This document shows, in pieces, positions 1 through 15,871 of a DNA stretch of 17,074 bases. The notes under the pieces are model-generated. The model did no database searches and was not told where the DNA came from. It saw nothing but the letters and a program-made list of their open reading frames with translations. Position numbers and translations under genes: made by a program. Every line of letters starts with the position of its first letter. Position 1 is the first letter of the stretch. The stretch comes from Candidatus Bipolaricaulia bacterium (lineage in GTDB: Bacteria; Bipolaricaulota; Bipolaricaulia; JBHIAT01). Location of the stretch: positions 1 through 17,074 of the forward strand of contig JBHIAT010000069.1 in assembly GCA_046758705.1 (NCBI GenBank). The letters are read 5' to 3'.

Positions 1-51
1 GATCGCCCAAAAGGGAGACAAAATTCCTTGCGATACTTCAACTACAGTCCA

Positions 52-771
52 CTAGACACTATCCTCTTCAGTTGGGGACACTGTAACCTCCTGAACTTCG
101 ACGGCGCCGTCGCCAACAGGCGTAAGCCGATAGATCTTGTCCGCATAGCGGTCGAATGCAGCAATGTCGTGGTGACTAATCATCAACACCTGGAAACCAA
201 GCGCTTTTCCGGCATCGTGGACGATCTTGACCAGCCTTGGAACGAGGTCCGGGCGGAGCCAGCAGTCCTGCTCGTCGAGAATGAGGAAACGGCGGTGCTC
301 GTTCTCATCAAGGGTAGCCAAGGCAAATATCCGCAGGCCAACGCTCAGGATGTTGGCCACGGAGCCACCTTGCCCGTGGAGAACGTCCTCCTGGTTGCCG
401 TTTCGCTCCATCCAGAACTCCACCACAGCTCTGTTGCGCTTGAACTCCACCTCGGCGTGAAACTTGATCGGCTGCTCAAGAATCTCCTGCAGTGCCACAG
501 TGAGTTTTTCTTGGACGATGTCGAGAAGCTGCCGGAAGAGCTGCTCGCTGAGCTGTTCCAGGGCTGTCGTGACCTTGCCGGAGATGGCCAAGTAACGGTC
601 TAGTTCTGAAAGCCGCTCTTTAACCCGTTTGGCCTGTCGCTTCTGCTCTTCATACTGCCAAGCGAGACCATCAACCCTCCTGCGCAGCACCTGGGGCGAG
701 GCTAGCTCCCCCGCCGGGGGCTGCTCGTCGGATCGGTCGTCGTCGCCGAAGGTGGCGCTTGATTCGGTCAT
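52..771 (-). CDS. Rad50/SbcC-like ABC ATPase, C-terminal half (short coiled coil, degenerate signature, Walker B, D-loop, H-switch; no Walker A)
   Basis: 239 aa. N-terminal helical/coiled stretch, then GQGGS (degenerate LSGG signature), FLILDE (Walker B), QDCWL (D-loop position), MISHH (H-switch). Starts with an ATGA overlap on the upstream stop (768-771). Confidence 0.85.
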   Translation of the reverse strand: MTESSATFGDDDRSDEQPPAGELASPQVLRRRVDGLAWQYEEQKRQAKRVKERLSELDRYLAISGKVTTALEQLSEQLFRQLLDIVQEKLTVALQEILEQPIKFHAEVEFKRNRAVVEFWMERNGNQEDVLHGQGGSVANILSVGLRIFALATLDENEHRRFLILDEQDCWLRPDLVPRLVKIVHDAGKALGFQVLMISHHDIAAFDRYADKIYRLTPVGDGAVEVQEVTVSPTEEDSV

Positions 772-1112
772 TCTGAGCTTTCCTCCTCTTCATCAGCTTC
801 TTCGCTGCCGCTCACCGCCTCCTGGAACTCCTCCTCCACAACCGCCAAGTTGCTCTCGATCTCGTCTAGGTGTTGCTGGTATTCCTTACGCTTCCGCTCG
901 TTCTCCTGTTTCATCTCCTCAAGCTTGCTTTTCAACTCTTCAATGTCGTCAGTGCCGTATTGGTCAAGCGCTTGCTCTTTCAGTTCGTCCAAGCGCTCGC
1001 GGGCGCTGTCTCGCTGCGTCTCTGCCTGGATTTTCTTCTTGTTAAGTTCTTGATACCGCTTCTGAAGCTGCTTGATTGTTTGTTCGGGCGATTTACTCTT
1101 TTTCTTAGCCAT
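768..1112 (-). CDS. Small coiled-coil protein, likely a subunit of the split Rad50/SbcC complex
   Basis: 114 aa, K/E/Q/L-rich heptad pattern with an acidic tail. GGAGG-like SD; the start overlaps the upstream stop (ATGGCTAA, 1112-1105). Confidence 0.8.
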   Translation of the reverse strand: MAKKKSKSPEQTIKQLQKRYQELNKKKIQAETQRDSARERLDELKEQALDQYGTDDIEELKSKLEEMKQENERKRKEYQQHLDEIESNLAVVEEEFQEAVSGSEEADEEEESSE

Positions 1113-2055
1113 CGCTCGTGACCTCCCTCACCAGCACCATGATCTCTTGGGCGACTTCATCTTCGAACTGTTCAAGGTTCTTCTCAAGAAATTGCATTAG
1201 CCCAGCTGCAGAGTCAGTCTTTCGGGCCTGAAGTTCAGCGAGCCCTGCGATGAAGGCCGACTCTGATGTATCTACGCTCTCGACCTCGACCATCTCGTGA
1301 AAAACCTCCTCGAAAGGACGATGGGGCACCTCGACATGCTCGTGGCTCCAGGTCTTAGATCGGACATTGATGCGCAGTACGGAGGGGACGTGCTCGAACG
1401 TCGCCTCGCTGCGCGTGCGCCGGCTGATGTTGCCCGGTGTCAGCCATAGGGTGCGACCGATCTGGAATGGATCGAGCTTGCGATGTATGTGACCGTTGAT
1501 CACCACGTCCACACCCGGAATCTCCTGGGGCTTAACTCGGCCTTGCTCTTCGTAACCGGGGACGCCGATGTCGTGATGTGCTAGCCAGATAACCAGCGCC
1601 GAGCCGTCCTCCTCTTCGTCGCTCGGATTAAAGGCATCGGGAAGGAACTGACGGTAAGAGGAGCCGCCCACGATGACGGGCCGGCCGTTGATACGGCCGC
1701 ACCAGGGGCAGTTGTGATCCACGAGCTGGATACAGCCGGCCTTGATGAGCAGGCTGAGGGAATCGTGCTCGTTGAGCTCCGGATCGGCGCAGTCATGGTT
1801 ACCATAGACACCGACTACCTCGGTGTTGAGCATCTCGATGAGCTGGCAGAGTATCCACGTCGGGTTGTCGCGCGGTTTGTCGAAAAAGTCGCCGAGTATC
1901 ACCGGCAGCAGTTGGTTCTGATCGGCATAGCCGAGGCACCACTGTAGCTTCTCGAGGATCACCCGTGGGTAGTCATCCTTGCGGAACCCGGGCTGGCGAC
2001 CCTCGAGGTGTGGATCACCGATGACCAGCACGCCCTTGTACTTGCTCTTAGCCAT
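1105..2055 (-). CDS. Mre11/SbcD-like calcineurin-type metallophosphoesterase (putative nuclease)
   Basis: Motifs GDPH, LGDFFD, GNHD, AHHD, GHIH and PGNISRR. Start reassigned to ATG 2055 (MAKSKYKG), which follows GGAGG and overlaps the upstream stop (ATGGCTAA). Confidence 0.9.
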   Translation of the reverse strand: MAKSKYKGVLVIGDPHLEGRQPGFRKDDYPRVILEKLQWCLGYADQNQLLPVILGDFFDKPRDNPTWILCQLIEMLNTEVVGVYGNHDCADPELNEHDSLSLLIKAGCIQLVDHNCPWCGRINGRPVIVGGSSYRQFLPDAFNPSDEEEDGSALVIWLAHHDIGVPGYEEQGRVKPQEIPGVDVVINGHIHRKLDPFQIGRTLWLTPGNISRRTRSEATFEHVPSVLRINVRSKTWSHEHVEVPHRPFEEVFHEMVEVESVDTSESAFIAGLAELQARKTDSAAGLMQFLEKNLEQFEDEVAQEIMVLVREVTSDG

Positions 2056-3385
2056 GGTCGTGTCCTCCGATGCCGGCAGCCGTCTGCTCGACCAGTTGGT
2101 CCGGGTCGACGCGGCCGCCACAGGTCGGGCAGATACCGTTACTCTCGGCCCAGTCCCTCAGCGACTGCTCGGCTTGCTGGAGTTTCTTCTTGGCTGCTTG
2201 CGTTGCCTTTTTGTACTTCTTGACGTCGGCGTCAGCTTGCTCAAGGCTGTCGATTAATTGACTTAACGGGCTCGTGTCGATCGTCTCGGGAATGGTCTGA
2301 ACTTCCTGTAGCAGTTCATGCCTCCAGTGCCATCGCTGTACATCATATTGGGCCGCCTCCAAGGCAAAAATAGTGTCGTTTAGTGCGTTCTCATCTTCCA
2401 TCTGAGGCGGCGAATCGAGGGAAGCAAGCTTCTCGGTTCGGGATTGGGCAGCGACGGTGGCCTGTGTCTGCTGCTGAAGGCCGCGGATGAGATGGGTCAA
2501 TGGCTCGATATCAACGGGCGGGGGTGACTCAGCGAGCGGACCAAGCGCCTTGGTTCGTCCGGCCTCGTACTGACGCCGCTGCTGCGTCCTCTCTAAATGT
2601 TTGATCAGTTGGGCCAGCGGATCGGGCGACTCAAGCTTGGGAGGGGCTTCCAAGGCCCCCAGTTTTTGAGCTACGGCGTCATGCCGACTCAACAGGCGGG
2701 TCGTCGCGTGGAGCTCCTTGACAAGCTTTTCGACCTCCTCGACCTGCCAGGCGAGGTTGAGAAGGGTGGCGTGCTCGGACTCGGCCTTTCCGACTTCGTC
2801 CTGGAGATTCGGAACGGGTTCCAGCTTTTCGAGTACCTCGGTGACCTTCTCGGCTTCTTCTCTCAGTCGCTGTTTATCTCTCCGAGCCTCGGTGACTTTC
2901 TGCTTGTGAAGGCTTTGCATCTCGATGAGGCGAATAGCGTCGGAAGAGGAAGCAAAGAACCCAGCCGCGTGTGAGGGCGAGGCATTGAGCAAGAAGATGG
3001 GTGACTTCTGCTCGGCAAAGTGAACGTCGAATTCCTCCCTGTCTGACTGGACCCGGGGCAGTCGCAGAACCTCGTAGAGCTTGTCGGGAACACCGCCCTT
3101 GCCGAGCCGGTCGAACTGATCGCCGTCGATCTTGTACTGTGGTGAGTTCTTACGAACCCATTCGATTGTATGCCCGTCGTCAGTCTCGACCCGTACCAAG
3201 CACTCGCTCTCACCGTGACGCGTGACGAATGTGCTCCTGTTGTTATAGCAGAGAATCTGGAACGCCTTGACGACCGCACTCTTGCCGCAGTTGTTGGGGC
3301 CGACCAGGACGGTGAGGCCATCGGCAAGGTTGATCACCGTGTGCTTGTGCGACATGAAGTTGATAAGCTCGATGCGTCGAATCAT
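2048..3385 (-). CDS. Rad50/SbcC-like ABC ATPase, N-terminal half (Walker A, Q-loop, coiled coil/repeats, C-terminal CxxC zinc-hook-like motif)
   Basis: MIRRIELINFMSH start typical of SMC/Rad50 N-termini, GPNNCGKS Walker A, FAEQ Q-loop, CPTCG near the C-terminus, no Walker B. Start set at ATG 3385 after GAAGGA (ORF-track start 3418). Confidence 0.9.
   Translation of the reverse strand: MIRRIELINFMSHKHTVINLADGLTVLVGPNNCGKSAVVKAFQILCYNNRSTFVTRHGESECLVRVETDDGHTIEWVRKNSPQYKIDGDQFDRLGKGGVPDKLYEVLRLPRVQSDREEFDVHFAEQKSPIFLLNASPSHAAGFFASSSDAIRLIEMQSLHKQKVTEARRDKQRLREEAEKVTEVLEKLEPVPNLQDEVGKAESEHATLLNLAWQVEEVEKLVKELHATTRLLSRHDAVAQKLGALEAPPKLESPDPLAQLIKHLERTQQRRQYEAGRTKALGPLAESPPPVDIEPLTHLIRGLQQQTQATVAAQSRTEKLASLDSPPQMEDENALNDTIFALEAAQYDVQRWHWRHELLQEVQTIPETIDTSPLSQLIDSLEQADADVKKYKKATQAAKKKLQQAEQSLRDWAESNGICPTCGGRVDPDQLVEQTAAGIGGHDHG
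2195..2662 (-). repeat. Four tandem degenerate 39-aa repeats in the ATPase N-half arm
   Basis: Units start LGALEAPP..PLAQLIKHL / LGPLAESPP..PLTHLIRGL / LASLDSPP..ALNDTIFAL / LQEVQTIP..PLSQLIDSL, spaced exactly 39 residues apart. Confidence 0.75.
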
Positions 3386-3502
3386 GCCACATCCTTCGAA
3401 AAAGTCATTGTCTTTCAACTACTTGGCATACTGCCCCAAGCAAAATCCTTCGTACATTCAAGCTCAGTCGCCAACGTGCCAACGACAAGTAGAATTTGTT
3501 CC

Positions 3503-3511
3503 ATTATATCA
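3503..3511 (-). promoter_or_regulatory. Extended -10 promoter (TGnTATAAT) for the split-SbcCD operon
   Basis: Minus strand reads gtgTGaTATAAT about 120 nt upstream of ATG 3385; the -35 element is poor. Confidence 0.55.
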
Positions 3512-3738
3512 CACCGTTGGGGTAATCCTGAAGTGAAGAACGTGGCGACCTGTCCGCCTTGGGCTCCTAAGCCTGAATGAAGTAATGAGAGGGGCCTTCA
3601 GCTTGGAGGTGGAGGTAACCCTGGAAGAGCAAATGATAGGGAGAGGCGAGAGTCCAAGCCTAACGTGATGGACAGGGTGTTCAGGAGAGGGACACCCAGG
3701 AGGTTCTTGACAACTACATCAAGATAGGAGGAAACGAC

Positions 3739-3822
3739 GTGACCGTCAAACGGCGACGATTCACTCGGGAATTTAAGCTTCAAGTGGTACGTGAAGTTGA
3801 GGCGGGTAAACCCATAGCCACA
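3739..3822 (+). pseudogene. IS3-family OrfA (HTH transposase) N-terminal remnant
   Basis: AGGAGG SD + GTG, reading (M)TVKRRRFTREFKLQVVREVEAGKPIA, typical of IS3 OrfA N-termini. Similarity stops after ~27 codons. Possible degenerate left end near 3669-3697 (TG...GGACAC). Confidence 0.7.
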
Positions 3823-4065
3823 CGCGATCGCGGCTTGAATCACCGGCTCGGTCAGCAGACTGCAATCGACCACGACCACGACCTTCGCTTGCCCGCCATA
3901 AGGCGGTTCGAACGTCTGGATCAACTCCGCTGCCAGCTCGGTCTGCTTGCGAAAGTCTGCTTCCTTGACAAACCGTTGGTTGACATAGGTACGCCAATCC
4001 CACGGCGCGACGATGTCGCCGACCCCGATCGCTGCGATCACCAGTTTCTGGCCCCACACGACCGA
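3820..4065 (-). pseudogene. IS701-like (DDE) transposase internal fragment
   Basis: VWGQKLV...PWDWRTYV...FRKQTELAAELI...VVVVVDCS resembles the central region of IS701/IS4-superfamily transposases, including a catalytic Asp strand. Both ends are missing. Confidence 0.55.
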
Positions 4066-4165
4066 GTCGATGTGGTGGACGGCATCGGGACGCTTAGAAA
4101 GACCTGCCGAGACATACCTCGTTGGCGTTTCAGCGATTTTAGGGAAGGTCTAGCTCCGCGCCCCC

Positions 4166-4195
4166 TTGACTTTTCAGCTCCTTCTCTGTTATCAC
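4166..4195 (+). promoter_or_regulatory. Putative sigma70 promoter for larA, possibly leaderless
   Basis: TTGACT (4166-4171), 18-nt spacer, TG-n-TATCAC (-10 at 4190-4195), about 10 nt before ATG 4206. No SD sequence. Confidence 0.35.
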
Positions 4196-4205
4196 CTTAT
4201 GACCA

Positions 4206-5495
4206 ATGATGAACATCTCTATTCCATACGGCAGAGAACGGTTGGAGTTTCAGGTTCCGAAAAGAAACCTGGTCGACGTCCTCCACCCGAATGAGATCAC
4301 CCCTCCCGATTCGGAGAAAGGAGAGATCGAAACGGCGATCGATCACCCGATTGGGACCAAAAAGCTAAACGAGATCGTCCGACCGAACGATCGAGTGGTG
4401 ATCATTTGCGAAGATATCACCCGACCCACGCCCGCCGATAAGATACTTCCCGTACTTTTGGACCGGTTACACGCAGCCGGCATCGCCAACGACGATATCC
4501 TCATCGTTATGGCTTTAGGAAGTCATCGGCCTATGACCGAAGCGGAGATGGCCGAGAAGGTCGGCCAGGAGATCTTTGCTCAGGTTCGCGTGGTCAACTC
4601 CGAGTTTCAGGATAAAAGCAAGCTAGTGGATCTCGGGCGAGCTCCGGGAGGGGTCAGAGTTTGGATTGATCAGCGGGTGGTGGCGGGAGATATCAAAATC
4701 GGTGTGGGCCATATTGTGCCTCATCCCGGCGCTGGATATACGGGCGGCGGAAAGATCATCTACCCTGGAGTGGCAGGAGCAGAGACCGTCGCTCAATTCC
4801 ACCTGCGCAGCGCTCTCCTGAATCGGAATATCTTAGGGGATGAGGAAAACCTGGCCAGACAGGAGATGGAGGGTTGGATCGATACCGTAGGACTGGATTT
4901 TATCATCAATTGTATCCTGACGCCTGAGGATCGCATTTATCGGGTCGTGGCTGGACACTATGTTAAGGCCCATCGGACCGGCGTAAAGTTTAGCCGACAG
5001 GTGTACGGGGTCAGAGCCAGAGAAAAGGTGGACATCGTCGTAGTGAGCGCTCACCCGGCGGATATTGACTTCTGGCAAGGGGGGAAAGGGCTTTTGTCCG
5101 GGGATCTCATCGTCAAAGATGGGGGATCACTGATCCTCACTGCCCCGTGCTTCGAAGGCGTGGGGCCTCATCCCTCCTTCCTGGATTATTGCGGAGCCGA
5201 CAACCCAGATAGATTGCTTAACGAGGCTCGGCAAGGGAAGGTGGATGCCAACGAGGCACTTCCCCTATCGGTAGGAGTTATGACAGCTAGAATCATAAAA
5301 AGGACAAAAATAGGGATAGTATCCAAAGGTTTGAGCGAAGAACAAGCTAAACGGGCGAAATTGGAGTATTTTTCTGATCTTGATGGTGCGCTTCAGGCCG
5401 CTCTCAGTCGTCACGGGCGTGGTGCCAAAGTCTCCGTGATACCCTACGGAGGTCATACCTATCCTTATCGCGTTTGGAAATCCCTCTTTCCCTAA
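4206..5495 (+). CDS. larA: Nickel-pincer-dependent lactate racemase family protein (LarA homolog, DUF2088)
   Basis: 429 aa with LarA motifs DITRPTP, ALGSHRPM, PHPGAGYTGGGK and FWQGGKG. Family is clear; substrate is unknown. Confidence 0.9.
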   Translation: MMNISIPYGRERLEFQVPKRNLVDVLHPNEITPPDSEKGEIETAIDHPIGTKKLNEIVRPNDRVVIICEDITRPTPADKILPVLLDRLHAAGIANDDILIVMALGSHRPMTEAEMAEKVGQEIFAQVRVVNSEFQDKSKLVDLGRAPGGVRVWIDQRVVAGDIKIGVGHIVPHPGAGYTGGGKIIYPGVAGAETVAQFHLRSALLNRNILGDEENLARQEMEGWIDTVGLDFIINCILTPEDRIYRVVAGHYVKAHRTGVKFSRQVYGVRAREKVDIVVVSAHPADIDFWQGGKGLLSGDLIVKDGGSLILTAPCFEGVGPHPSFLDYCGADNPDRLLNEARQGKVDANEALPLSVGVMTARIIKRTKIGIVSKGLSEEQAKRAKLEYFSDLDGALQAALSRHGRGAKVSVIPYGGHTYPYRVWKSLFP

Positions 5496-5583
5496 GTTTT
5501 CCCTGTCTAACCGTCAGAAATCGTTAATAATAGCCATATATTTGGCTAAAAAATCAATTTCTTTCTGATTTTCTGTGAAATAA

Positions 5584-5619
5584 TTGACAACACTTATAAA
5601 AATATGTTATTATAACATA
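5584..5619 (+). promoter_or_regulatory. Sigma70 promoter with overlapping palindromic operator
   Basis: TTGACA 5584-5589 and TG-n-TATTAT (-10 at 5608-5613). A perfect 8-1-8 palindrome TATGTTAT-T-ATAACATA at 5603-5619 covers the -10. Confidence 0.7.
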
Positions 5620-5643
5620 CAAAATAACGGGGGGTGTTTCAAG

Positions 5644-7239
5644 ATGAACGGGGAAAAGCAGGGAGGTTGGACGGAGAGGAAGGTCTCTCGTCGCGACTTT
5701 CTACGAGAGGCTGGAGCGGTTGGCCTCGGTGCCGCATCGATCGGGGTGCTTTCCGCTCTAAGTTCATCAACGGCCTTTGGTCGCCCCGACACTGAGGTGA
5801 TCTTCGCGACCTCGAATATGCCGAGCAGCTTGGAGCCTCATCTCAACGGGGCCGATATATGGCAGAGACGGAAGCCGATGATCTACGAGAACCTCACCCG
5901 GATTAGTGAGGATCTTGCTCCCGAGCCCCAATTGGCAGAGTCGTGGGAGCAGCTATCCCTAACGGAATATGTCTTCAAGGTTCGTCGGGGTGTCAAATTC
6001 CATAACGGTCAGGAGCTGGATGCCGAGGATGCGAAGTATACCTATGAGCGCGTTCTCGATCCTGATGTGGGTTCAGGAGGTGCCGGCGATCTAAGGTTCA
6101 TCGATAAGATCGAGGTTCTCGATAAGTACACCGTAAGATTCAGTCTCAAAGAGGTTGTAGCGCCGGGGCTGTTCCTGCTCAACTTGGGGGGTAAATACAA
6201 TGGGATCATCCCCAAGGATTTCTTGCCGGAGAAGACCAGCAGAAATCTGTCCAATGCCGGCATGGGAACGGGTCCCTACAAAGTCGTGGACTTCGAACCC
6301 AATGAAAAAATCGTGCTGGAAAAGCATGGAAGCTATTGGCAAAGCGGGAAACCGCATGTCGATCGGGTCACTTTCCAGGCGATCCCGGATGAATCCTCCA
6401 TCGTAGCCGGTTTGCGAACCGGCGAGGTAGACATCACCGACTTCTGGGACACCTTCAACTTCTATCGAGTGAGTGGGGATCAGCGGCTGAACACGGTGCG
6501 CGTTCCCTCCCTGACCCTCAAAGCCCTTGATCTGTCAGGGAGCCTCGAACCGACGAATGACCCGCGGGTCAGGTTGGCCATTCAGTTGGGAATCGATCGT
6601 GATGAGATCCTCAAAATCTCCGGCAACAACATCGGTCAGCAGATCGGGATCATCCCACCGGGCATGACCTTTTGGGCGCTTCCCTGGACAGAGCTGCCCA
6701 ATCAGAAGCGGGACGTCAATCGTGCTCGGGAATTGTTGGCAGAAGCCGGTTACACCAGAGGAATGAAGTTGAAGCTGCGGAACATCATCGGATATCCGGC
6801 GTTGGCTGCGAGTATTCAAGTCATCGCCGATCAGCTCAGGGACGTGGGGTTAGATGTAACGATTGAGACCATAGACATTGGCCTATGGATCAAAGATTGG
6901 CTCGAGTTTAAGACGCCACCTACGATGAACGCGTGGGGAGGCTTCGTCGATCCCGACCAATATCTCTATAGGCATTTCCATAGCCGCCCTCAGGGAGCGG
7001 ACTTCCGTAACTGGAACGACCCTGTAGGCGATGCATTGCTGGATGCGGGACGCCGTGAACTGGATCGGGAGAGGCGCAGGAAAATCTACAATCAGTTGCA
7101 ATCCCATATGGCCAGTTCAGCGATCACCATCCCGCTGTACGCGCCAGACCTCGTCTACAGCATGCAAAAGTCTATCCAAGGCTTCACGTACCATCCTATG
7201 GGTTTCTACTATGGCTTGCGCTTCATAGAGAAGGCGTAG
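5644..7239 (+). CDS. ABC transporter substrate-binding protein, family 5 (Dpp/Opp/Nik-like), Tat signal
   Basis: SRRDFL twin-arginine motif plus hydrophobic stretch; LAESWE, FHNGQEL, GTGPYK, DPRVRLAI. Start reassigned to ATG 5644 (the ORF-track TTG start at 5584 is the -35 box). Confidence 0.92.
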   Translation: MNGEKQGGWTERKVSRRDFLREAGAVGLGAASIGVLSALSSSTAFGRPDTEVIFATSNMPSSLEPHLNGADIWQRRKPMIYENLTRISEDLAPEPQLAESWEQLSLTEYVFKVRRGVKFHNGQELDAEDAKYTYERVLDPDVGSGGAGDLRFIDKIEVLDKYTVRFSLKEVVAPGLFLLNLGGKYNGIIPKDFLPEKTSRNLSNAGMGTGPYKVVDFEPNEKIVLEKHGSYWQSGKPHVDRVTFQAIPDESSIVAGLRTGEVDITDFWDTFNFYRVSGDQRLNTVRVPSLTLKALDLSGSLEPTNDPRVRLAIQLGIDRDEILKISGNNIGQQIGIIPPGMTFWALPWTELPNQKRDVNRARELLAEAGYTRGMKLKLRNIIGYPALAASIQVIADQLRDVGLDVTIETIDIGLWIKDWLEFKTPPTMNAWGGFVDPDQYLYRHFHSRPQGADFRNWNDPVGDALLDAGRRELDRERRRKIYNQLQSHMASSAITIPLYAPDLVYSMQKSIQGFTYHPMGFYYGLRFIEKA

Positions 7240-7267
7240 TGTACCGATACCGATAAGGAGTAAGGAC

Positions 7268-7312
7268 AAAACCACCGTATCCTCCCAGCCTCCGGGGAGA
7301 TATGGTGGTTTT
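7268..7312 (+). terminator. Intercistronic stem-loop (mRNA stabiliser or partial terminator) after the binding-protein gene
   Basis: AAAACCACCGTATCCTCCC ... GGGGAGATATGGTGGTTTT near-perfect inverted repeat. Confidence 0.6.
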
Positions 7313-7343
7313 GCTTAAAGCGAGATCAGAGAGTTATCCTCAC

Positions 7344-8294
7344 ATGGGGGAATATATTGCCCGTAGGTTGCTAGCGACCCTCCTGACCGCGCTTGGGTTA
7401 AGCCTGTTGATCTTTTTCATTATGAGATTGATCCCGGGGACCGTCGTTGAGCAACTTTTGGGGCCCAATTCCTTTGCTCCCAAGGAAGCGATAGAAAGTC
7501 TTAAACAGATGTTCGGCCTCGACCGGCCCCTCTATGTTCAATACTTCAATTGGATGAAGAACATCTTCGTCGGGGGGTGGGGCCTGGATTATAAAAGTGC
7601 CCAACCCGTGCTAAGCCTCCTGTTGAAAAAGATCCCGGTTTCCGCTGAACTGGGTTTCTTAGCTGTGTTGTGGTCCCTGATCATCGGCGTTCCCATGGGG
7701 GTAATCGCAGCCGTCAGACGCAACCGCTTCTCGGACAACTTTATCCGCATCATCTCTACTTTGGGTCTGTCCATCCCGGCCTTTTGGCAAGGGACTCTAC
7801 TCATCTTGCTCTTCTCCGTTCACCTGAATTGGATGCCCCCATTTCAGTGGGTTCAATTTTGGGAAGACCCCATCAAGAACCTCACGATTATCGCTTTACC
7901 TGCCTTAACGTTGGGCACAGCAACGGCGGCCATGATTACTCGATTGACCCGATCAACCATGTTGGAAGTTTTGAGTATGGATTACGTTCAGACAGCCCGC
8001 TCAAAGGGATTGGTTGAGAGAGCCGTTATCTTGAAACACGCGCTCAGAAACTCTTTGATCCCGGTGATCACCGTGGCTGGAGTTCAGATGGGGTATATCT
8101 TGGGAGGAATCGTTGTGATTGAGGAGGTCTTCTCCCTGCCCGGGGTCGGTCGCCTGCTGATGAACGCCCTGTTCGAACGTAACTACCCTCTTGTACAGGG
8201 GAACATCCTGTTATTTGGGCTGTTGTTCATGGGGATAAACTTATTGGTTGATCTCTCTTACCTTTTCCTGGACCCGAGGATTCGCTATGAATAA
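7344..8294 (+). CDS. ABC transporter permease (DppB/OppB-like)
   Basis: MGEYIARRLL N-terminus, FGLDRPLYVQY, DYVQTARSKG (EAA-like loop), KHALRNSLIP, DPRIR C-terminus. Alternative start 7302 lies inside the hairpin. Confidence 0.92.
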   Translation: MGEYIARRLLATLLTALGLSLLIFFIMRLIPGTVVEQLLGPNSFAPKEAIESLKQMFGLDRPLYVQYFNWMKNIFVGGWGLDYKSAQPVLSLLLKKIPVSAELGFLAVLWSLIIGVPMGVIAAVRRNRFSDNFIRIISTLGLSIPAFWQGTLLILLFSVHLNWMPPFQWVQFWEDPIKNLTIIALPALTLGTATAAMITRLTRSTMLEVLSMDYVQTARSKGLVERAVILKHALRNSLIPVITVAGVQMGYILGGIVVIEEVFSLPGVGRLLMNALFERNYPLVQGNILLFGLLFMGINLLVDLSYLFLDPRIRYE

Positions 8295-9165
8295 AAGGAT
8301 GCAGAGCATCTTAACGTTCTGGTTTAAATCCCTCTATATTCGTATTAGAGCGTCTAATATCATATCAAACAAATTCCTGCTCGTTGGAGCCATCATTCTG
8401 ACGCTCTATCTCATTATAGCGATCTTTGCCGATATCATTGCCCCTTACCCGCCGATTAAGACCGACTCCGCATTGATGCTCCAGTCTCCCAGCTTAGCGC
8501 ATCCGTTCGGCACCGATCGCTTCGGCAGGGATCTGCTCAGCCGGACGGTTTATGGAACCCGTGTGTCACTGAGTGTCGCGTTTGCCTCGATCGGGGCCGC
8601 TGTTTTCGCAGGCAGTCTGTTGGGACTGGTCGCCGCCTATTTGGGCAAGGCCGTCGATCAGATCTTAGGGCGGGTGATGGATATCTTCTTTGCGCTTCCC
8701 TCCATCCTGCTTGCAATTGCCATCTCAGCCATTTTGGGAACCGGGAGGAGCAACGCCATTCTCGCGATCGCTATCGTCTATATGCCCTCGTTTTTCCGGG
8801 TCATGCGTGGGAGCGTTCTGTCCGAGAAGGAGAAGGTCTATGTTGAAGCCGCCAGAGCCGTAGGCGCCAGCCCGTGGTATATCATGTTCCGTCAGATTCT
8901 CCGCAACGTCTTGGCACCGATCTACGTGCAGGCCGCTGTATCTCTCTCTTATGCCATCTTATTGGAAGCCGCGCTGAGCTTTCTTGGCGTGGGCGTTCAG
9001 CCTCCCACCCCGTCTTGGGGAACCATCTTAAACGAAGGGAGAAACTACCTGGAAATCGCGCCATGGATTTCGATCTTTCCTGGGGTGTTTATCATGCTCT
9101 CTGTGCTCTCCTTTAACTTTATTTTCGATGGACTCCGTGATATTTTCGACCCCAGATTGCGGTAG
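8287..9165 (+). CDS. ABC transporter permease (DppC/OppC-like)
   Basis: HPFGTDRFGRD, YVEAARAVGA (EAA), LSFLGVGVQPPTPSWG, DGLRDIFDPR. ATG 8287 overlaps the preceding gene end. Confidence 0.92.
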   Translation: MNKRMQSILTFWFKSLYIRIRASNIISNKFLLVGAIILTLYLIIAIFADIIAPYPPIKTDSALMLQSPSLAHPFGTDRFGRDLLSRTVYGTRVSLSVAFASIGAAVFAGSLLGLVAAYLGKAVDQILGRVMDIFFALPSILLAIAISAILGTGRSNAILAIAIVYMPSFFRVMRGSVLSEKEKVYVEAARAVGASPWYIMFRQILRNVLAPIYVQAAVSLSYAILLEAALSFLGVGVQPPTPSWGTILNEGRNYLEIAPWISIFPGVFIMLSVLSFNFIFDGLRDIFDPRLR

Positions 9166-9174
9166 GATACAGGG

Positions 9175-9843
9175 TTACCTCCCACCCCGCCCCGGCGGGG
9201 GGATCACACCGAGTTGTTGCATCAGGCCCAGCGAGTCCGCTACGCCCCAGTGCTCAACTATCTTGCTGTCAACGATGCGATAGATGTGGATCTCCGTTAT
9301 CGTGAATCGCCTGCCAGTCGGGGGGATGCCTAGAAACACTCCCCTGTGTGTGCCGCGAGTTGTGACTCGTGCCACGACCTTGTCCCCTTCGGCGACCAGG
9401 TCCTCAATAGTGGAATGAAGGTTGGGGAAGGCCGTTTGGAATATGGTGAAGAGTTGCTTCATGCCCGCGATGCCGGGTGATAGTCCGGAAGGAGCGCTGT
9501 GATCGACGAAGTCGGTGACGACCAAATCGTCCAATGCGTCCAGGTTCCCCCCGTTGATGACCTGCTCAGCGAAACGGCGGTAGATGACCTTGTTTTCTTC
9601 TGCCTGTCGCTTTGGGATGATGAGCGACTCCCCGATGCGCAGACCCCTGGGATTTGCTACCCTGATCCCATTGGCTTCAGCGATCACTGTCCACAGGGTT
9701 CCATCCCCGTAGAACTGCTCAGCAATCCTCCACAGAGAATCCCTCTCTTTGACCTGATACGTCGTGGGGGTCTGGGCTAGAGCTGCTGTTGTCAGCATCA
9801 TCAATATGATTGCCAGTGTCAAAAGACCGAACCAGCGATTCAT
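9175..9843 (-). CDS. Secreted LysM domain - SnoaL-like (NTF2-fold ester cyclase) fusion protein
   Basis: Sec signal (MNRWFGLLTLAIILMMLTTAALA), LysM (YQVKERDSLWRIAEQFYGDG...IAEANGI...LRIGESLIIP), then SnoaL-like domain (EENKVIYRRF, AFPNL, EGDKVVAR, GTHRGVFLGIPPTGR, KIVEHW). AAGGAGG SD. Confidence 0.88.
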   Translation of the reverse strand: MNRWFGLLTLAIILMMLTTAALAQTPTTYQVKERDSLWRIAEQFYGDGTLWTVIAEANGIRVANPRGLRIGESLIIPKRQAEENKVIYRRFAEQVINGGNLDALDDLVVTDFVDHSAPSGLSPGIAGMKQLFTIFQTAFPNLHSTIEDLVAEGDKVVARVTTRGTHRGVFLGIPPTGRRFTITEIHIYRIVDSKIVEHWGVADSLGLMQQLGVIPPPGRGGR

Positions 9844-9882
9844 GATTAGCCTCCTTGAATTTAGAATTTAACTGGTAATTTT

Positions 9883-9911
9883 ATAATACTCGATACTTAG
9901 GGTACCTTCAA
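9883..9911 (-). promoter_or_regulatory. Sigma70 promoter for the LysM-SnoaL gene
   Basis: Minus strand TTGAAG-17 nt-TATTAT. Confidence 0.55.
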
Positions 9912-9951
9912 TGCAACTTTGAGAGGGTGAGCAGAAAGTTTTTCTGAAATT

Positions 9952-9980
9952 TTGACAGATGGATGCTAACCATGTACGAT
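9952..9980 (+). promoter_or_regulatory. Sigma70 promoter for the PPOX-AKR gene run; contains 18-bp repeat copy 1
   Basis: TTGACA-17 nt-TACGAT. Positions 9952-9969 (TTGACAGATGGATGCTAA) are identical to 15732-15749. Confidence 0.65.
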
Positions 9981-10002
9981 CTAAAAATAATAGGAGGAGG
10001 AG

Positions 10003-10467
10003 ATGGGCAAGCTCAGTGCGGAAGAGCTGGGAAGATTCCTATCGCTCCCGTGGAATGGACGGTTGGCCACGGTCACTCCGTCGTGTACACCCTATGTGAC
10101 TCCGGTTTGGTACGAATATGACCCGTCCAAACGGGCCTTCTATGTGATGGCTCGGGCGCGATCTGCTTACATAGAGCACATCAAGAAGAACCCTCAAGTC
10201 GCCTTTCATATTGCCGATGATGGGCCGGAGCACACCAGAGTTCTGGTGGAAGGGACGGCCAAAATTCTGGAAGGGCCTACCCCTCCCAGTCAAAGCGAGA
10301 GGTTACGAGCTTTGGCAGATCGGATGGCTCGCCGATATATGGGGGAGGAAGGACCGGCATATGTCCAAAAAACCTTAGATCAACCTCGCTATCTGTTAGA
10401 GGTCACCCCTAAAAAACTGACTTCGTGGACCGGGGCGGGTGTATGGCATCCAAGATATTATCAGTGA
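10003..10467 (+). CDS. Pyridoxamine 5'-phosphate oxidase-like (split-barrel FMN/F420-binding) protein
   Basis: 154 aa; GRLATV..PYVTPVWY, KKNPQVAF, VLVEGTA. AGGAGGAGG SD. Confidence 0.85.
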   Translation: MGKLSAEELGRFLSLPWNGRLATVTPSCTPYVTPVWYEYDPSKRAFYVMARARSAYIEHIKKNPQVAFHIADDGPEHTRVLVEGTAKILEGPTPPSQSERLRALADRMARRYMGEEGPAYVQKTLDQPRYLLEVTPKKLTSWTGAGVWHPRYYQ

Positions 10468-11666
10468 AACCTATGATCATTATCCTGGTAGCGGGGGGCC
10501 TGCTGATCGGAACTGTTTCGCCTGGAACGGCTACCCACGAGGGAATCACTGGCTCTGACCGGATCAGTCGGGGAACCCTCGGGATAAAGTACTTCTTCAG
10601 ATACGAGCTCCAGGATATCAACCCCGATGTCGACCCCAGCAACGTAAAGTACCTCGCTGAGCTCGATTTGAGTCTGCTCATCCCGGGTGGGCCGCCCCGC
10701 GATTGGATCTCATCGGTCGACTCCCCCCGATTTACACCTCCCGAGGAGGCGACTTGGCTCAACGAGGACGATCTGGTCGTCGGCATCCAGTTCAACGGCG
10801 CCGTCCGTGCCTACCCGGTTAACATCCTCAACTGGCATGAGATCGCCAACGATAATCTCAACGGCATCCCGGTCGCGATCACCTACTGCCCGCTGTGCAA
10901 CTCAGCGCTGGCGTTCGTCGCTCCGGAGATCGACGGTCGGATCGCCCCGTTCGGAACCTCCGGACGTCTGTACCGATCCGATCTGGTGATGTACGATCGG
11001 GTCACCGGCAGCTTCTGGAGCCAGATCGAGGCGCAACCGATCGTCGGACCGGCCGTGGGTGAACTCGGCAAGCTTCATCAGATACCGGTTGATATTGTCC
11101 CTTGGGGGTTGTGGAAAGCTGAGAATCCAGAGACGATGGTGATGGCTCGGCCTGAGTTCGGTGATGTGTTGGGTGGAACCCAGACCGAACCGATCCCAGC
11201 GGTTGGCCCGTTCCCTCGGGATTACGATCGTGATCCCTACGCCCCTTACCGGCTGAGCGACCTCAGCACGTTTGGCACCCCGTTCAACGACGCGCGTCTT
11301 CGGGCGAAGGACGATGTCATCGGCATCCGCATCGACGGCAACGCGAAAGCCTATGCTAAGAAAGCGTTCGATGAACTGCCACTGCTGAACGACCGGGTCG
11401 GTAACATCCCGATCTTGGTCGTCAAGTCCCCGGCTGGCGAGGTCAAGTTCTTCGTCCGCCGAGTCGAGGAAGGCAGCCGTGTCCTGGAGTTTGAGCTCAT
11501 CGACGGCCGACTCATCGATATACGGACGCGATCGGTCTGGAGTTTCCGGGGAGAGGCTGTCTCCGGAGAGCTTGCCGGAACGCAGTTAGAGAAGGTCGTC
11601 GGGATTCCATCTTTCTGGTTTGCCTGGGTCTCCTTCAATCCTGACACGGAGCTGTTCGTTGAGTGA
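10464..11666 (+). CDS. DUF3179-family exported protein with CxxC motif
   Basis: Signal-peptide-like N-terminus; GGPPRDWI.S.D.P, RAYP..IL.WHEI.ND, TYCPLCNS, FGTSGRLY.SDLVMYDR.T.S.WSQ, FWFAW..F.PDT. Start uncertain (10443, 10464 via GTGA overlap, or 10473). Confidence 0.8.
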   Translation: MKPMIIILVAGGLLIGTVSPGTATHEGITGSDRISRGTLGIKYFFRYELQDINPDVDPSNVKYLAELDLSLLIPGGPPRDWISSVDSPRFTPPEEATWLNEDDLVVGIQFNGAVRAYPVNILNWHEIANDNLNGIPVAITYCPLCNSALAFVAPEIDGRIAPFGTSGRLYRSDLVMYDRVTGSFWSQIEAQPIVGPAVGELGKLHQIPVDIVPWGLWKAENPETMVMARPEFGDVLGGTQTEPIPAVGPFPRDYDRDPYAPYRLSDLSTFGTPFNDARLRAKDDVIGIRIDGNAKAYAKKAFDELPLLNDRVGNIPILVVKSPAGEVKFFVRRVEEGSRVLEFELIDGRLIDIRTRSVWSFRGEAVSGELAGTQLEKVVGIPSFWFAWVSFNPDTELFVE

Positions 11667-11684
11667 TATGACTGCAGTGAAGAG

Positions 11685-12467
11685 GTGATCGAACCCATGA
11701 AAATTATGGAGCGGATTTGCTTGGTCGGGAGCAGCCGGTTTGGACTCTCCAATCCGTTTGACTGCAGCGTGTACCTGCTTGACGGTGGTTCCGAGCTGCT
11801 GTTGATCGACGCGGGAGCCGGCGTCGATATTCAGCCCATCCTGCACAACATTGAAACGGATGGGTATGATCCGGAAGATATCAGCACGATCATCGTCACC
11901 CATTCCCACGCAGATCACGGAGGTGGATGCAGAGACTTTAAAGAGAAAGTAGGGTGCAACATTACCGTTCCAGAGGGAGACCGGATGGTCATCGAAGGGC
12001 AAGTCCCCGAGATGGGATTGGAGCAGGCGAAGCACAGTGGCATTTATCCCGCCACCTACGACTATCCGCATGTCCCCGTGGATCGCGTCTATCAGGATGG
12101 GGAGCGGCTAAAGTTCGGCGACATCACTTTGCACGCCATCCGTGTTGCCGGACACCATCCCCACCTCATGTGCTTGCTCCTAGAGGGAGAGGATCGGCGG
12201 ATTCTCTTCTCTTCAGATGCGGTCTTCTATGGAGGGAGCATCAGCCTATTGAACGCCCCAGGTTGCAGTTTAGATGACTCTAGACGCGATATTCACAAAC
12301 TGGCCTCGCTGGATGTCGACGTGCTGTTACCCGGTCACGGTATCTTCGTACTCAATTACGGACAAGACCATATCAACAGAGCGATCGCTTATCTTGAGGG
12401 AATGAAGGTTCCTCCGAACTTTATCGACCTATGCCCCAAGATCATCCCTGAGGGATATGCACGATGA
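11685..12467 (+). CDS. Metallo-beta-lactamase-fold hydrolase
   Basis: LLIDAG, THSHADHGGG (HxHxDH), AGH, FSSD, LPGHG. Confidence 0.88.
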   Translation: MIEPMKIMERICLVGSSRFGLSNPFDCSVYLLDGGSELLLIDAGAGVDIQPILHNIETDGYDPEDISTIIVTHSHADHGGGCRDFKEKVGCNITVPEGDRMVIEGQVPEMGLEQAKHSGIYPATYDYPHVPVDRVYQDGERLKFGDITLHAIRVAGHHPHLMCLLLEGEDRRILFSSDAVFYGGSISLLNAPGCSLDDSRRDIHKLASLDVDVLLPGHGIFVLNYGQDHINRAIAYLEGMKVPPNFIDLCPKIIPEGYAR

Positions 12468-13675
12468 AATTGTTAACCCCTAATGAGATCAGAGCAAAGA
12501 TACACGACGATGAACTCATTGATCTGGTGTCCGATTTGATCAGAATTCCCAGCCATGCTCAGATAGCAGATCAAGAGAAACAGGTGGGGCAATTTCTGGT
12601 GGAGTGGTGCCAAAACCAGAAGATCGACGTTGAGCGCCAAGAAGTGGGGGAAGGGCGGTTCAATGTGATCGCAATGGTGCCAGGCCATGCCCCGCAAAAA
12701 AGCAAGCGCCGGCTGAGGCTGATGTTCAATGGCCACTTAGACACCGTCCCTCCCTCTGCACAGATGCAGATCGATCCCTATGGGGCGACGCTGACTCAGG
12801 GTCGAATCTATGGAAGAGGGGCTGTGGATATGAAGGGAGGTTTGGGGGCCATGGCCTATGCGCTGAAGCTGGTCCAAGAATCTGGCGTCCATCTCAATGG
12901 CGATCTCATGCTAGCGGCCGTCGTGGGTGAGGAGACCGGAGGCCATGGAACCCACCGATTGGTCGCCCAAGGGCCTCAAGCTGATCTTGCCATTGTCGGT
13001 GAGCCGACGGACCTTCAGATCCTCGTAGCGCATAAAGGGGTGGAGAGGTTCTCGGTGATTGTCAAGGGACTCGCGGCCCACGGCAGCAGTCCCGAACGGG
13101 GTGTGAATGCGATCAGTCAAGCGGCCAAGCTGATTACGGCTATCGATGAACAGCTCATTCCAAAACTGAGGGAACAGCACCATCCGATGTTAGGATATCC
13201 GACGCTTAACATTGGGACGATATGCGGGGGAACGAGCCGGAATACCGTGCCCGATCGATGCGTTTTCCAGGTGGGGAAGCGATGGCTGCCTGGGGATTCT
13301 GTGGAAAAGATATATCGGGATTTCCAAGACCTCGTCGATCGATTGAAGGAAATGGACCCCTCGCTGGAGGTCGAGATCGAAAGGGAAGCTTACCTCACAG
13401 AGATCCCTCATCCCCCGTTTGAGATCCCGATAGACCATCCTCTGGTTCAAACGTTGAGGCGTTCGATCTTGGAGGTCACCGGCCGCGAACCGGCCTATCA
13501 GGGAATGCCGTTTTGCACCGATGCCAGTATACTTTCATCGGGTGGTGTGCCCACGGTCGTCTTGGGTCCGGGGAGTTATCAGCAAGCGCACGGAGATTCC
13601 GAGCACATCGATGTGAAGCAGCTCCTCGATGCGACATGTATTTATAGCCTTGTGGCTCTGAAACTTCTTACATAA
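12464..13675 (+). CDS. M20 family metallopeptidase/deacylase (ArgE/DapE-like)
   Basis: NGHLDTV, GRGAVDMKG, GEE, GEPT, AHGSSPERGVNAI, GPG..QQAH..SEH. ATGA overlap with the upstream gene. Confidence 0.92.
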   Translation: MKLLTPNEIRAKIHDDELIDLVSDLIRIPSHAQIADQEKQVGQFLVEWCQNQKIDVERQEVGEGRFNVIAMVPGHAPQKSKRRLRLMFNGHLDTVPPSAQMQIDPYGATLTQGRIYGRGAVDMKGGLGAMAYALKLVQESGVHLNGDLMLAAVVGEETGGHGTHRLVAQGPQADLAIVGEPTDLQILVAHKGVERFSVIVKGLAAHGSSPERGVNAISQAAKLITAIDEQLIPKLREQHHPMLGYPTLNIGTICGGTSRNTVPDRCVFQVGKRWLPGDSVEKIYRDFQDLVDRLKEMDPSLEVEIEREAYLTEIPHPPFEIPIDHPLVQTLRRSILEVTGREPAYQGMPFCTDASILSSGGVPTVVLGPGSYQQAHGDSEHIDVKQLLDATCIYSLVALKLLT

Positions 13676-13690
13676 GGGGGGATCTTTCTG

Positions 13691-14689
13691 ATGGAATATC
13701 GCACATTGGGACGAACCGGCGTACAAGTTTCTAGTCTGTGCTTGGGAACGATGCCGTTTGGCGACGCCGCCGATGAGAAGACTTCTGCAGCTATGTTTCA
13801 TCGCTGCCGTGAAGTCGGCATCAACTTTTTCGATACGGCGGACGTGTATGCGGGCGGTCGTTCCGAGGAGATCCTGGGCAAGTTGATCGCGGATTGCCGC
13901 GACGAGATTGTCCTGACATCCAAGCTCAGCTTCCCCACCAGTGAGGATGTGAATGCACGCGGCATGTCACGTCGCCACATCAGGCTGGCCGTGGAGGTCA
14001 GCCTGAGACGTCTGGGAACGGATCGTTTAGACCTCTATTTCCTGCACAGCTTTGATCCCAAGACGCCGATTGAGGAACCACTACGCGCCTTGGATGATCT
14101 CATCCATCAGGGAAAAATCCTATACCCGGCGGTCAGCAACTGGGCGGCATGGCAAATCGCCAAAGCACTGGGTATCTCAGCACGCGAGGGATTGGCGCGC
14201 TTTGAATGCATCCAGCCCATGTATAACCTGGTCAAACGTCAAGCTGAAGTCGAAATTTTTCCACTGGCTTTGTCAGAGCAAGTGGGCGTCATCTCTTATA
14301 GCCCCCTGGGAGGAGGGCTGTTGACCGGAAAGTATGGCACGACTCACCGGCCGGAACGAGGGCGGCTGCTGGAGAGTGAAATATACATTCAGCGTTATGG
14401 TGACCCAATCTACTATGAGGTTACGGAACGTTTCACGGCACACGCCCAACAACACGGTGTGCACCCTGCCTCGCTGGCGGTCGCCTGGGTCATGTCCCAC
14501 CCGGCCATCACCGCGCCGATCATCGGTGCACGCAACGTGAAACAACTCGAAGCGTCGCTGGCCGCACTCGATATGGACATGACACCTGAGTGGCGTGCCG
14601 AGATCTCGGCGCTCTCCATCGAGCCACCATCGGCAACCGACCGCAATGAAGAAAGGAGTGGCATTTTTTATATGGAAAGGAAAGAATGA
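13691..14689 (+). CDS. Aldo/keto reductase
   Basis: MEYRTLGRTGVQVSSLCLGTM, FFDTADVY, TSK, LYFLH (D/Y/K/H tetrad), YSPLGGGLLTGKY, PIIGAR. Confidence 0.95.
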   Translation: MEYRTLGRTGVQVSSLCLGTMPFGDAADEKTSAAMFHRCREVGINFFDTADVYAGGRSEEILGKLIADCRDEIVLTSKLSFPTSEDVNARGMSRRHIRLAVEVSLRRLGTDRLDLYFLHSFDPKTPIEEPLRALDDLIHQGKILYPAVSNWAAWQIAKALGISAREGLARFECIQPMYNLVKRQAEVEIFPLALSEQVGVISYSPLGGGLLTGKYGTTHRPERGRLLESEIYIQRYGDPIYYEVTERFTAHAQQHGVHPASLAVAWVMSHPAITAPIIGARNVKQLEASLAALDMDMTPEWRAEISALSIEPPSATDRNEERSGIFYMERKE

Positions 14690-14719
14690 GGGAGCAGGGC
14701 CCCGGCACCCTGCCCCCTC
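14688..14719. terminator. GC-rich hairpin between convergent genes
   Basis: GAGGGAGCAGGG ... CCCTGCCCCCTC inverted repeat; no U-tract. Confidence 0.5.
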
Positions 14720-14728
14720 CGTCCCGGA

Positions 14729-15091: not shown

Positions 15092-15123
15092 AGTTGATTT
15101 CCTCCTCTTTGTTTGTTACTTTC

Positions 15124-15152
15124 ATTATACTCAATGAGATCATTGAAGTCAA
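15124..15152 (-). promoter_or_regulatory. Consensus sigma70 promoter for the VOC gene with a palindromic operator in the spacer
   Basis: Minus strand TTGACT-17 nt-TATAAT. The spacer holds TCAATGA-GA-TCATTGA (15131-15146). Confidence 0.75.
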
Positions 15153-15204
15153 CCCCTAAAATCTGTGCTATGATAATAAGGATCACTGAATGCGGAGGGA
15201 GCCA

Positions 15205-15687: not shown

Positions 15688-15731
15688 ATGATTGGGTTGT
15701 GATGCTGACGGCCTCCGGCGATCAACACCTA

Positions 15732-15761: not shown

Positions 15762-15871
15762 GTAAAAAACTGACAAGAAAGTTCAAGAACTGCGCAGATT
15801 TATAGTTATGTCACCGTCAGGAATCCGGACAAAATCAAGAATTTGTTGGATGTCTTGGAATAAATAAATGA

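Follow-up and report, generated by a model that had tools for sequence, protein, structure and literature searches.

The locus considered here lies at one end of a contig of a Candidatus Bipolaricaulia bacterium (assembly GCA_046758705.1, contig JBHIAT010000069.1), whose entire stretch of 17,074 nucleotides, positions 1 to 17,074 of the forward strand, constitutes the window that was analyzed. It comprises four minus-strand genes, each with an ATG start. In the order of their transcription these are: gene A (2048..3385), which codes for a Rad50/SbcC-like N-terminal half of 445 residues and was recognized by Pfam matches and alignments; gene B (1105..2055), a metallophosphoesterase of 316 residues with the Mre11 fold, recognized by Pfam and by an AlphaFold2 model compared with known structures using Foldseek; gene C (768..1112), a small helical-hairpin protein of 114 residues delineated by conserved synteny; and gene D (52..771), a Rad50/SbcC-like C-terminal half of 239 residues delineated by its invariant motifs. 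Genes A and B overlap by ATGGCTAA at 2055-2048, B and C by the same ATGGCTAA at 1112-1105, and C and D by ATGA at 771-768, so that the translational coupling described in a first-pass annotation of this DNA is upheld. The contig ends 51 bases past gene D.

The arrangement is not peculiar to the window. In tblastn searches covering 11 loci from 11 genomes, the order A-B-C was retained in all 11 loci, and D was adjacent in 10 of them, which bears out the conserved four-gene synteny that the first-pass annotation had put forward as a check. In the eleventh genome (G464), A, B and C are adjacent on one contig (C9, locus L032) and D lies on another (C22, locus L053), with no A, B or C match within about 1.5 kb on either side of it. 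Beyond the four genes, the flanks of the 11 loci are unrelated to each other, except in the case of two loci from related genomes (L033 and L034).

The product of gene A begins with the residues MIRRIEL, which are common to all its relatives, and its architecture consists of the N-lobe of an ATP-binding cassette (ABC) head, an ascending helix, four proline-punctuated repeats of about 39 residues, a hook-proximal helix and a C-terminus of the form CPTCG...GGHDHG. The Pfam families that match it (AAA_15, 3.4e-12; AAA_23, 6.4e-10) do so in the N-terminal ATPase region alone. Within this region the Walker A motif GPNNCGKS (residues 29-36; 3278..3301, minus strand) is strongly conserved, with G29, P30, N31, N32, G34, K35 and S36 being invariant in 12/12 and 46/46 aligned sequences, and the Q-loop glutamine, Gln126, is likewise invariant in the alignment. 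Homologs of A are numerous (of the 7,999 candidates that were scored, 752 reach E<=0.001), and the 120 best of these are 413-570 residues long, with 36-47% identity. The few that bear organism names come from the Planctomycetota (Pirellulaceae and Phycisphaerae), and the existing labels are either 'exonuclease SbcC' or 'AAA family ATPase'. Among phage protein families, the best PHROGs matches of A are an 'exonuclease' family (phrog_16465, 5.7e-21) and an SbcC-like family (phrog_77, 1.5e-18).

The arm of A is formed by its four repeats (2171..2659, minus strand), which conform to the consensus L..L..PP.L.D...L..LI..L and are present in 3-6 copies among relatives (alignment A1). The 120 best homologs have lengths grouped around 445, 485, 522 and 562 residues. 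As the repeat number varies in this manner, the lengths of the partner proteins stay roughly constant (96-118 residues for C and 223-258 for D), and for this reason we infer that the repeats are unable to pair residue-for-residue with either C or D. The arm is followed by the zinc-hook-like CxxC motif CPTC (residues 419-422; 2120..2131, minus strand). The first-pass annotation had A ending at this motif, but a further 23 residues follow, giving the C-terminus CPTCGGRVDPDQLVEQTAAGIGGHDHG with GGHDHG as its last residues. These features are typical of the family: C419 and C422 are invariant in the alignments, a CxxC motif lies within the last 45 residues in 120/120 of the best homologs, a tail of 20-24 residues follows it in 111/120, and 84/120 have an HxH in this tail. 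Profile positions 409-468 of the A family match the solved Rad50 zinc hook (6zff_A, E 1.4e-4). Judging from its sequence, the frequent HxH tail could complete a metal site within one chain, instead of a hook shared between two.

The remainder of the ATPase head is found in the product of gene D, which has N-terminal helices followed by a C-lobe. The latter carries GQGGSVANILSVGLR, LILDEQDCWLRP and ISHHD, all of which are invariant across the aligned relatives, and which include a signature-like motif (GQGGS; 361-375), a combined Walker B and D-loop (LILDEQD; 265-285) and an H-loop (SHHD; 166-177), all on the minus strand. Hence, the head motifs of Rad50/SbcC are all present and invariant, though divided between two chains, with GPNNCGKS and Q126 in A and the rest in D. 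The first-pass annotation had apportioned the head motifs in the same way, and its placement of the Walker A, Q-loop, Walker B, D-loop and H-loop stands; the signature is non-canonical, in that our reading of the alignment gives QGGS in place of the SGGx of Rad50. Gene D has no Pfam family above cut-off; in PHROGs it matches a 211-position 'ATPase' family (phrog_15167, 2.6e-11).

An indication of how A and D relate to each other comes from the wider family of D. A search with no length filter against representatives of 50%-identity clusters yielded 1,652 matches at E<=0.001, many of them proteins of 570-760 residues with a D-like N-terminal domain. In these proteins, as Pfam matches and inspection revealed, the D-like domain is succeeded by an N-lobe bearing Walker A, by the repeats known from A and by a tail of the form CPTCG...H at the C-terminus, making them circularly permuted D-A chains. 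In profile comparisons with hhalign, the D family aligned to positions 19-222 of the fused family (probability 100, E 1.1e-56), and positions 233-647 were taken up by the A family (probability 100, E 8e-64). An AlphaFold2 model of one such fused protein (P0178), built from a 62-row alignment, had a mean predicted local distance difference test score (pLDDT) of 85.0. Its residues 1-450, which encompass two N-terminal helices, the C-lobe, the N-lobe and an 87-residue helix, had block-mean pLDDT values of 79-98, mostly above 90, the repeat region (457-567) fell below about 60, and the hook-proximal helix (573-617) was at about 90. The best Foldseek matches of this model were halves of SMC/Rad50 heads, namely 5h66_B, 1f2t_B, 1f2u_D (target-normalized TM-score, TMt, 0.72), 9a9j and 1ii8; such half-chain matches are to be expected when a sequential aligner meets a permuted Rad50-type head. 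Two of these structures, 1F2T and 1F2U, are reported to be Pyrococcus furiosus Rad50 heads crystallized from separate N- and C-terminal chains. The assembly of the head in trans from A and D, as the first-pass annotation had proposed, is well supported as a prediction from sequences and models, because the motifs of the two are complementary, their genes are co-encoded, and the single-chain D-A fusions are modeled as one confident Rad50/SMC-type head.

The nuclease component, gene B, contains the Pfam Metallophos domain (3.9e-11), and the five phosphoesterase motifs GDPH, GDxFD, GNHD, HHD and GHIH are all invariant in its alignment. Its AlphaFold2 model, based on a 42-row alignment, attained a pLDDT of 85.2 and a predicted TM-score (pTM) of 0.77. 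In a Foldseek search of the PDB, every match listed, down to rank 49, was an Mre11 protein of eukaryotic, archaeal or bacterial provenance, with E-values ranging from 2.8e-12 (for the best, 4yke_A) to 7.9e-9 and query-normalized TM-scores (TMq) of 0.48-0.60. The family is large (971 homologs at E<=1e-10), and in PHROGs it matches the SbcD-like phrog_100 (3.3e-7). Past the catalytic domain, B has a C-terminal region of three conserved helices (267-277, 284-296 and 299-313) with block-mean pLDDT values of 60-83. By its modeled fold and the five metal-binding motifs, B is a member of the Mre11-fold nuclease family, and it is predicted to have nuclease activity.

Gene C, which is present in 11/11 loci, codes for a helix, a YGTDD turn, a second helix and an acidic tail, with T54, D56 and other positions invariant. 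It has no family above cut-off in Pfam, PADLOC or NCBIfam. Its look-alikes in the ESM Atlas are unnamed clusters of proteins of 100-115 residues with about 100-146 members each, in which the commonest phyla, among the few members that have a record, are the Thermodesulfobacteriota and Pseudomonadota. Prediction of the A + D + C complex with alignments, in which C was the sole scored partner and the scores come without a contact list, gave C an interaction prediction score from aligned errors (ipSAE) of 0.52-0.53 in three runs, versus 0.00, 0.00 and 0.01 in the controls, with a pLDDT of 75-76 for this partner and at least 94% contact agreement between runs. The tool grades this as 'weak support': at ipSAE <=0.60 only 7/80 solved complexes passed, and the mismatched pairs that passed at all (2/110) were both in this range. 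As the replacement of A in a control lowers the score of C to 0.01, A is pointed to as its docking partner. The modeling thus gives weak support to C being a further subunit that would bind A. The first-pass annotation had seen in C a small coiled coil serving as a third arm subunit; its role as a subunit is retained at this strength (0.53 versus 0.01), but it looks like a helix-YGTDD-helix hairpin and not a simple arm segment.

The models of Mre11-Rad50/SbcCD action lean heavily on a continuous folded-back coiled coil with a hook. The cassette resembles these complexes, including the T4 gp46/gp47 and T5-type pairs, in carrying Walker A, Q-loop, Walker B, D-loop and H-loop on an ABC head, in having close to the tip of the arm a CxxC region similar in sequence to a solved Rad50 hook, and in possessing an Mre11-fold nuclease with all metal-binding motifs, the SbcC-like and SbcD-like PHROGs matches being in keeping with this. 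It departs from them in that its ATPase comprises two chains, the break falling about 23 residues past the CxxC, and in that the nuclease gene is placed between the two halves. Furthermore, the single folded-back chain of Rad50/SbcC is replaced by an arm of 3-6 proline-punctuated 39-residue repeats, and the frequent HxH tail, the QGGS signature and the extra hairpin subunit C are additional differences. The curated Rad50/SbcC models did not recognize the cassette, the best NCBIfam Rad50 score being 44.6 bits against a cut-off of 1000.

Rearranged versions of this complex have been described before. Yoshida, Claverie and Ogata (2011; PMC3175470) reported Mre11/Rad50 fusion proteins that occur sporadically on plasmids, in viruses and in cells, and also a protein of Bacillus phage 0305phi8-36 that lacks one P-loop segment. 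These fusions share with the cassette a rearranged Mre11-Rad50 and a sporadic distribution, but there the nuclease and ATPase are fused, whereas here the ATPase is split (PMC3175470). The word 'split' does not occur in the text of that article, and 'circularly permuted' is used there for the T4 genome alone. In passages of Iyer et al. (2021; PMC7824862), only ordinary SbcCD is mentioned, in jumbo phages. A full-text literature search did not turn up any account of Rad50/SbcC in split or permuted form; its scope left out supplements and the classification of Krishnan et al. (2020; NAR 48:10045), which may describe the family. The cassette is, then, apparently an undescribed variant of a well-known repair complex.

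The permuted D-A relatives are homologous to the split proteins over all of D and A, and share with them the repeats, the CxxC...H tail and the B and C partners; they differ in that D and A form one chain, which is often found beside a RecJ paralog or RecQ. In Achromobacter anxifer and Novimethylophilus kurashikiensis the operon comprises a C-like gene (145 or 127 residues), the D-A fusion (713 or 687 residues, with the C-terminus CPLC...HQHG or CPVC...H) and a B-like gene (333 or 345 residues). The order C / D-A / B is a cyclic rotation of A-B-C-D. Divergently upstream of the fused operon, both betaproteobacterial loci have a RecJ gene on the minus strand (3613-5403 in L035, 3674-5425 in L036). 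This is a paralog: each genome has three matches to the RecJ model, and the neighbor of the operon is not the highest-scoring of these (403 versus 452 bits in one and 434 versus 484 bits in the other). Matches to D were also found in 21 plasmid records, all typed as non-mobilizable and many of them megaplasmids. Five of these loci, the first ones in the table, were inspected, and each of them has, in this order, a small ORF (open reading frame), an ATPase of about 550-660 residues and an ORF of about 257-334 residues, the last labeled 'metallophosphoesterase' in two cases. In all five, genes of DNA metabolism adjoin the operon: RecQ, with RdgC further on, in an Aeromonas plasmid; RecQ in an Alteromonas plasmid; LigD in a Bosea plasmid; RecJ, RepB, ParAB and ThyA in a Variovorax megaplasmid (L055); and a helicase and topoisomerase in a Pseudomonas plasmid. 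This repair context is suggestive rather than decisive, because the fused relatives have only about 25-35% identity to the window proteins.

To place the two forms relative to each other, a quick maximum-likelihood tree of the D domain was built with IQ-TREE and rooted at the midpoint. It included 110 rows (29 split, 75 fused and 6 with other extensions), which were obtained from 151 candidates (P0004 and 150 listed matches) after dropping those shorter than 200 residues or covering fewer than 150 profile positions. All 75 fused forms, together with three short rows and one truncated row, fall into one clade amid the split forms (Shimodaira-Hasegawa-like approximate likelihood ratio test, SH-aLRT, 97). 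This tree is compatible with one fusion event in a split ancestor and, if rooted differently, with the reverse change; either operon would give rise to the gene order of the other through tandem duplication.

The phyletic spread of the cassette is patchy. Proteins like A were found in 1/184 genomes of a sample from its own phylum, this one being the source genome itself, and in 12/301 sampled genomes of the order that holds the relatives G184/L001; the fused form was found in 1/301 genomes of the order of Achromobacter anxifer, again the query itself. It is in view of this distribution that the cassette is most likely to have been horizontally acquired. The source genome also has, on contig C39 (about 8281-10315, minus strand; L007 and L008), a separate and conventional-looking SbcC/SbcD-like pair, made up of a 960-residue ORF matching TIGR00618 (E 1.6e-27) and, about 1 kb away, a 353-residue ORF matching TIGR00619 (E 1.4e-16), both below cut-off. 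The cassette is an accessory element, distinct from the core SbcCD.

Taken together, a four-part Mre11-Rad50-like machine with a head contributed by two chains is well supported at the level of sequence comparisons and structure models. With a probability of about 60%, we favor the more specific reading that the operon encodes a four-subunit, ATP-gated nuclease of the Mre11-Rad50/SbcCD type, acting on DNA ends or hairpins and disseminated as a mobile accessory module. Under this proposal, A would furnish the N-lobe of the ABC head with the Walker A and Q-loop, D would furnish the C-lobe with the signature-like motif, Walker B, D-loop and H-loop, and the two chains would associate via these lobes and via a pair of antiparallel helices at the arm base. 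Heads of this kind may close in pairs on ATP and DNA, as in Rad50. B would act as a Mn-dependent nuclease of the Mre11 type, probably docked on the arm base by its C-terminal helices. The arm of A would be a variable string of 39-residue helical repeats, rather than a folded-back coiled coil, and the zinc module at its end, formed by the CxxC and possibly the HxH, might either join two complexes or cap the arm. The C hairpin would bind A, although this step is weakly supported. As a horizontally acquired cassette, the whole could process DNA ends or hairpins in the course of recombination, repair or replicon maintenance.

Several observations weigh against this proposal. The non-canonical QGGS signature means that ATP-driven engagement of the heads is an assumption. 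At the sequence level B did not match any solved Mre11 or SbcD, since sequence and profile searches of the PDB gave Vps29 alone, at E of at least 0.08. Within the source genome, TIGR00619 missed B and matched contig C39 alone, and TIGR00618 likewise matched the 960-residue ORF of C39 alone and not A. The neighbors with roles in repair belong to the distant fused subfamily (about 25-30% identity), and the split subfamily has ordinary metabolic genes around it. Since the contig stops shortly after D, further genes on that side would be out of sight. Finally, a patchy and self-contained cassette also resembles a defence system, and the best PADLOC match of A is the LmuB model (PDLC03859, 3.1e-14, residues 2-427).

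The last of these points leads to an alternative that we consider improbable but a genuine contender, namely that, as suggested in the first-pass annotation, the cassette functions in defence against phages or plasmids, with an SMC/Rad50-like part that senses the ends of foreign DNA and is coupled to a nuclease, as in Lamassu or Wadjet. Lamassu combines the SMC-like ATPase LmuB with an LmuA effector and LmuC, and Wadjet consists of JetA, JetB, JetC and JetD, which make up a MukBEF-like complex and a Toprim nuclease. Such a role would agree with the patchy spread of both forms, the self-contained nature of the cassette in unrelated contexts, the presence of relatives on megaplasmids and the adjoining transposase-like remnant, and the cassette is like Lamassu in having a Rad50/SMC-like ATPase that matches LmuB and a small partner protein. 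The likeness does not extend to the other components: the nuclease of the cassette is of the Mre11 type, none of the listed PADLOC families is an LmuA or LmuC model, and there is no JetA, JetB or JetD model among them, the resemblance to JetC being one of weak coiled coil. In PADLOC, gene B matched 0 families; D had only weak matches, the best being mad3 (2.5e-6), with 0.018 for the LmuB model; A matched mad3 at 2e-6; and C gave weak coiled-coil matches to the LmuB and JetC models (E of at least 2.3e-5). The NCBIfam MAD3 model scored 18 bits against its cut-off of 420. Thus, membership in Lamassu, Wadjet or the MADS system is not borne out; a PADLOC run had been among the checks suggested in the first-pass annotation.

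The genomic surroundings were also considered. We compared the 106 ORFs of at least 150 residues within 8 kb of the 11 planctomycete-type loci with PADLOC (E<=1e-10), and a subset of 20 with Pfam. The 25 PADLOC families listed, out of 104 matched, were generic, and included mad3 (three members), GajB/UvrD-type (two), RtcR-type (two) and RTasHel (two). Three neighbor ORFs of one similarity cluster proved in Pfam to be ordinary ABC transporters and are likely the mad3 matches. The immediate neighbors that were scanned are DUF1559 proteins, a Na/H exchanger, an asparaginase, a disulphide oxidoreductase, a sigma-54 activator and UreD. A defence-island context, which the first-pass annotation had proposed testing for, was therefore not found among these 106 ORFs, where the matches pointed to ABC transporters, UvrD-type helicases and sigma-54 activators; as no matched control loci were included, this is a weak negative. 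The company of RecJ, RecQ or LigD that the fused relatives keep also speaks against a defence role.

That the cassette is instead a vertically inherited housekeeping replacement of SbcCD appears quite unlikely. In its favor, the two betaproteobacterial genomes with the fused form have no convincing canonical SbcC (the best TIGR00618 match having an E of 3e-4). On the other hand, the source genome has its separate pair on C39, searching the remaining 183 genomes of the phylum sample did not reveal the cassette, it is confined to 12/301 and 1/301 genomes in the orders of its relatives, and its flanks differ from locus to locus, save for the sister genomes L033/L034. The first-pass annotation had named such inheritance as an outcome that would speak against its reading, and these observations run contrary to that outcome. 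A decayed or mis-assembled sbcC, with the split arising from a frameshift or pseudogenization, can be set aside as virtually negligible, in agreement with the first-pass annotation, since the same gene borders with the intervening B and C recur in 11/11 loci, the homologs of the sizes of A, B and D run into the hundreds (752 for A alone), the catalytic motifs are all invariant, and the genes have ATG starts and coupled overlaps.

The interest of the family lies in its being large and conserved with the chain cut right after the hook, an arm of short repeats in variable number, a fourth subunit and a circularly permuted sister form. These natural 'split' and 'permuted' versions allow the contributions of arm continuity, arm length and hook chemistry to the sensing and cleavage of DNA ends to be probed. 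Annotation is also affected: D is invisible to Pfam, C belongs to no family, and A goes under its generic labels. A bolder and rather doubtful extension of our proposal would be that these operons represent a distinct mobile class of Mre11-Rad50, with a topologically open Rad50 ring in which the arm is one chain of modular repeats whose number sets its reach, the zinc module is C2H2-like and takes the place of a shared hook, and C closes or gates the arm; the split and permuted operons might then interconvert by tandem duplication and, together with RecJ or RecQ paralogs, could form a self-contained kit for end resection or against invaders that moves on megaplasmids and other mobile DNA.

A phage origin of the split subfamily was also considered and rejected. 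In IMG/VR, a scan using the D profile picked out 27 pattern stretches but no relative among them, and the GenBank phages gave only two candidates. One is an N-terminal match in Bacillus phage 0305phi8-36. The other is gene 2 of Microbacterium phage Magritte (L051, 284-934, plus strand), a 216-residue 'exonuclease' at the left end of the genome, which is a stand-alone D-like C-terminal half (24% identity, E 1e-7) with an 'ASCE ATPase' two genes downstream; partner genes were not seen at the right end of that genome. Split Rad50-like ATPases may thus occur in actinophages too.

A further variation was observed among the relatives of D. Five of them (P0132, P0142, P0145, P0148 and P0156; 475-531 residues, about 45-53% identity) have an additional C-terminal extension of about 250-300 residues. 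In the four that were scanned (P0132, P0142, P0145 and P0156) the extension had no Pfam match, and in the source genome it has no counterpart, only the D-like part (query residues 8-225) being matched. In the quick tree the extended proteins group together as a single clade (SH-aLRT 95).

With regard to the rest of the window, an ORF at 3739-4209 (plus strand) lies next to the cassette, and its first ~27 residues, MTVKRRRFTREFKLQVVREVEAGKPIA..., encoded chiefly by 3748-3819, resemble the N-terminal helix-turn-helix (HTH) of transposases. Residues 4-27 match HTH_Tnp_1 with an E of 1.7e-4 and 22.2 bits, below the cut-off of 24.1, and the rest of the ORF is unmatched. The insertion sequence (IS) debris that the first-pass annotation had placed next door is thereby reduced to a stretch of about 24 residues, and the ORF, which separates the cassette from larA, is probably, judging by this similarity, a short remnant of an IS. 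From 4206-5495 (plus strand) onward, the window codes for a LarA-type lactate racemase, a family-5 solute-binding (peptide-binding) protein and a SnoaL/LysM protein, and further genes specify a DUF3179 protein, a metallo-beta-lactamase-fold protein and an M20 peptidase, all of which are in keeping with ordinary metabolism.

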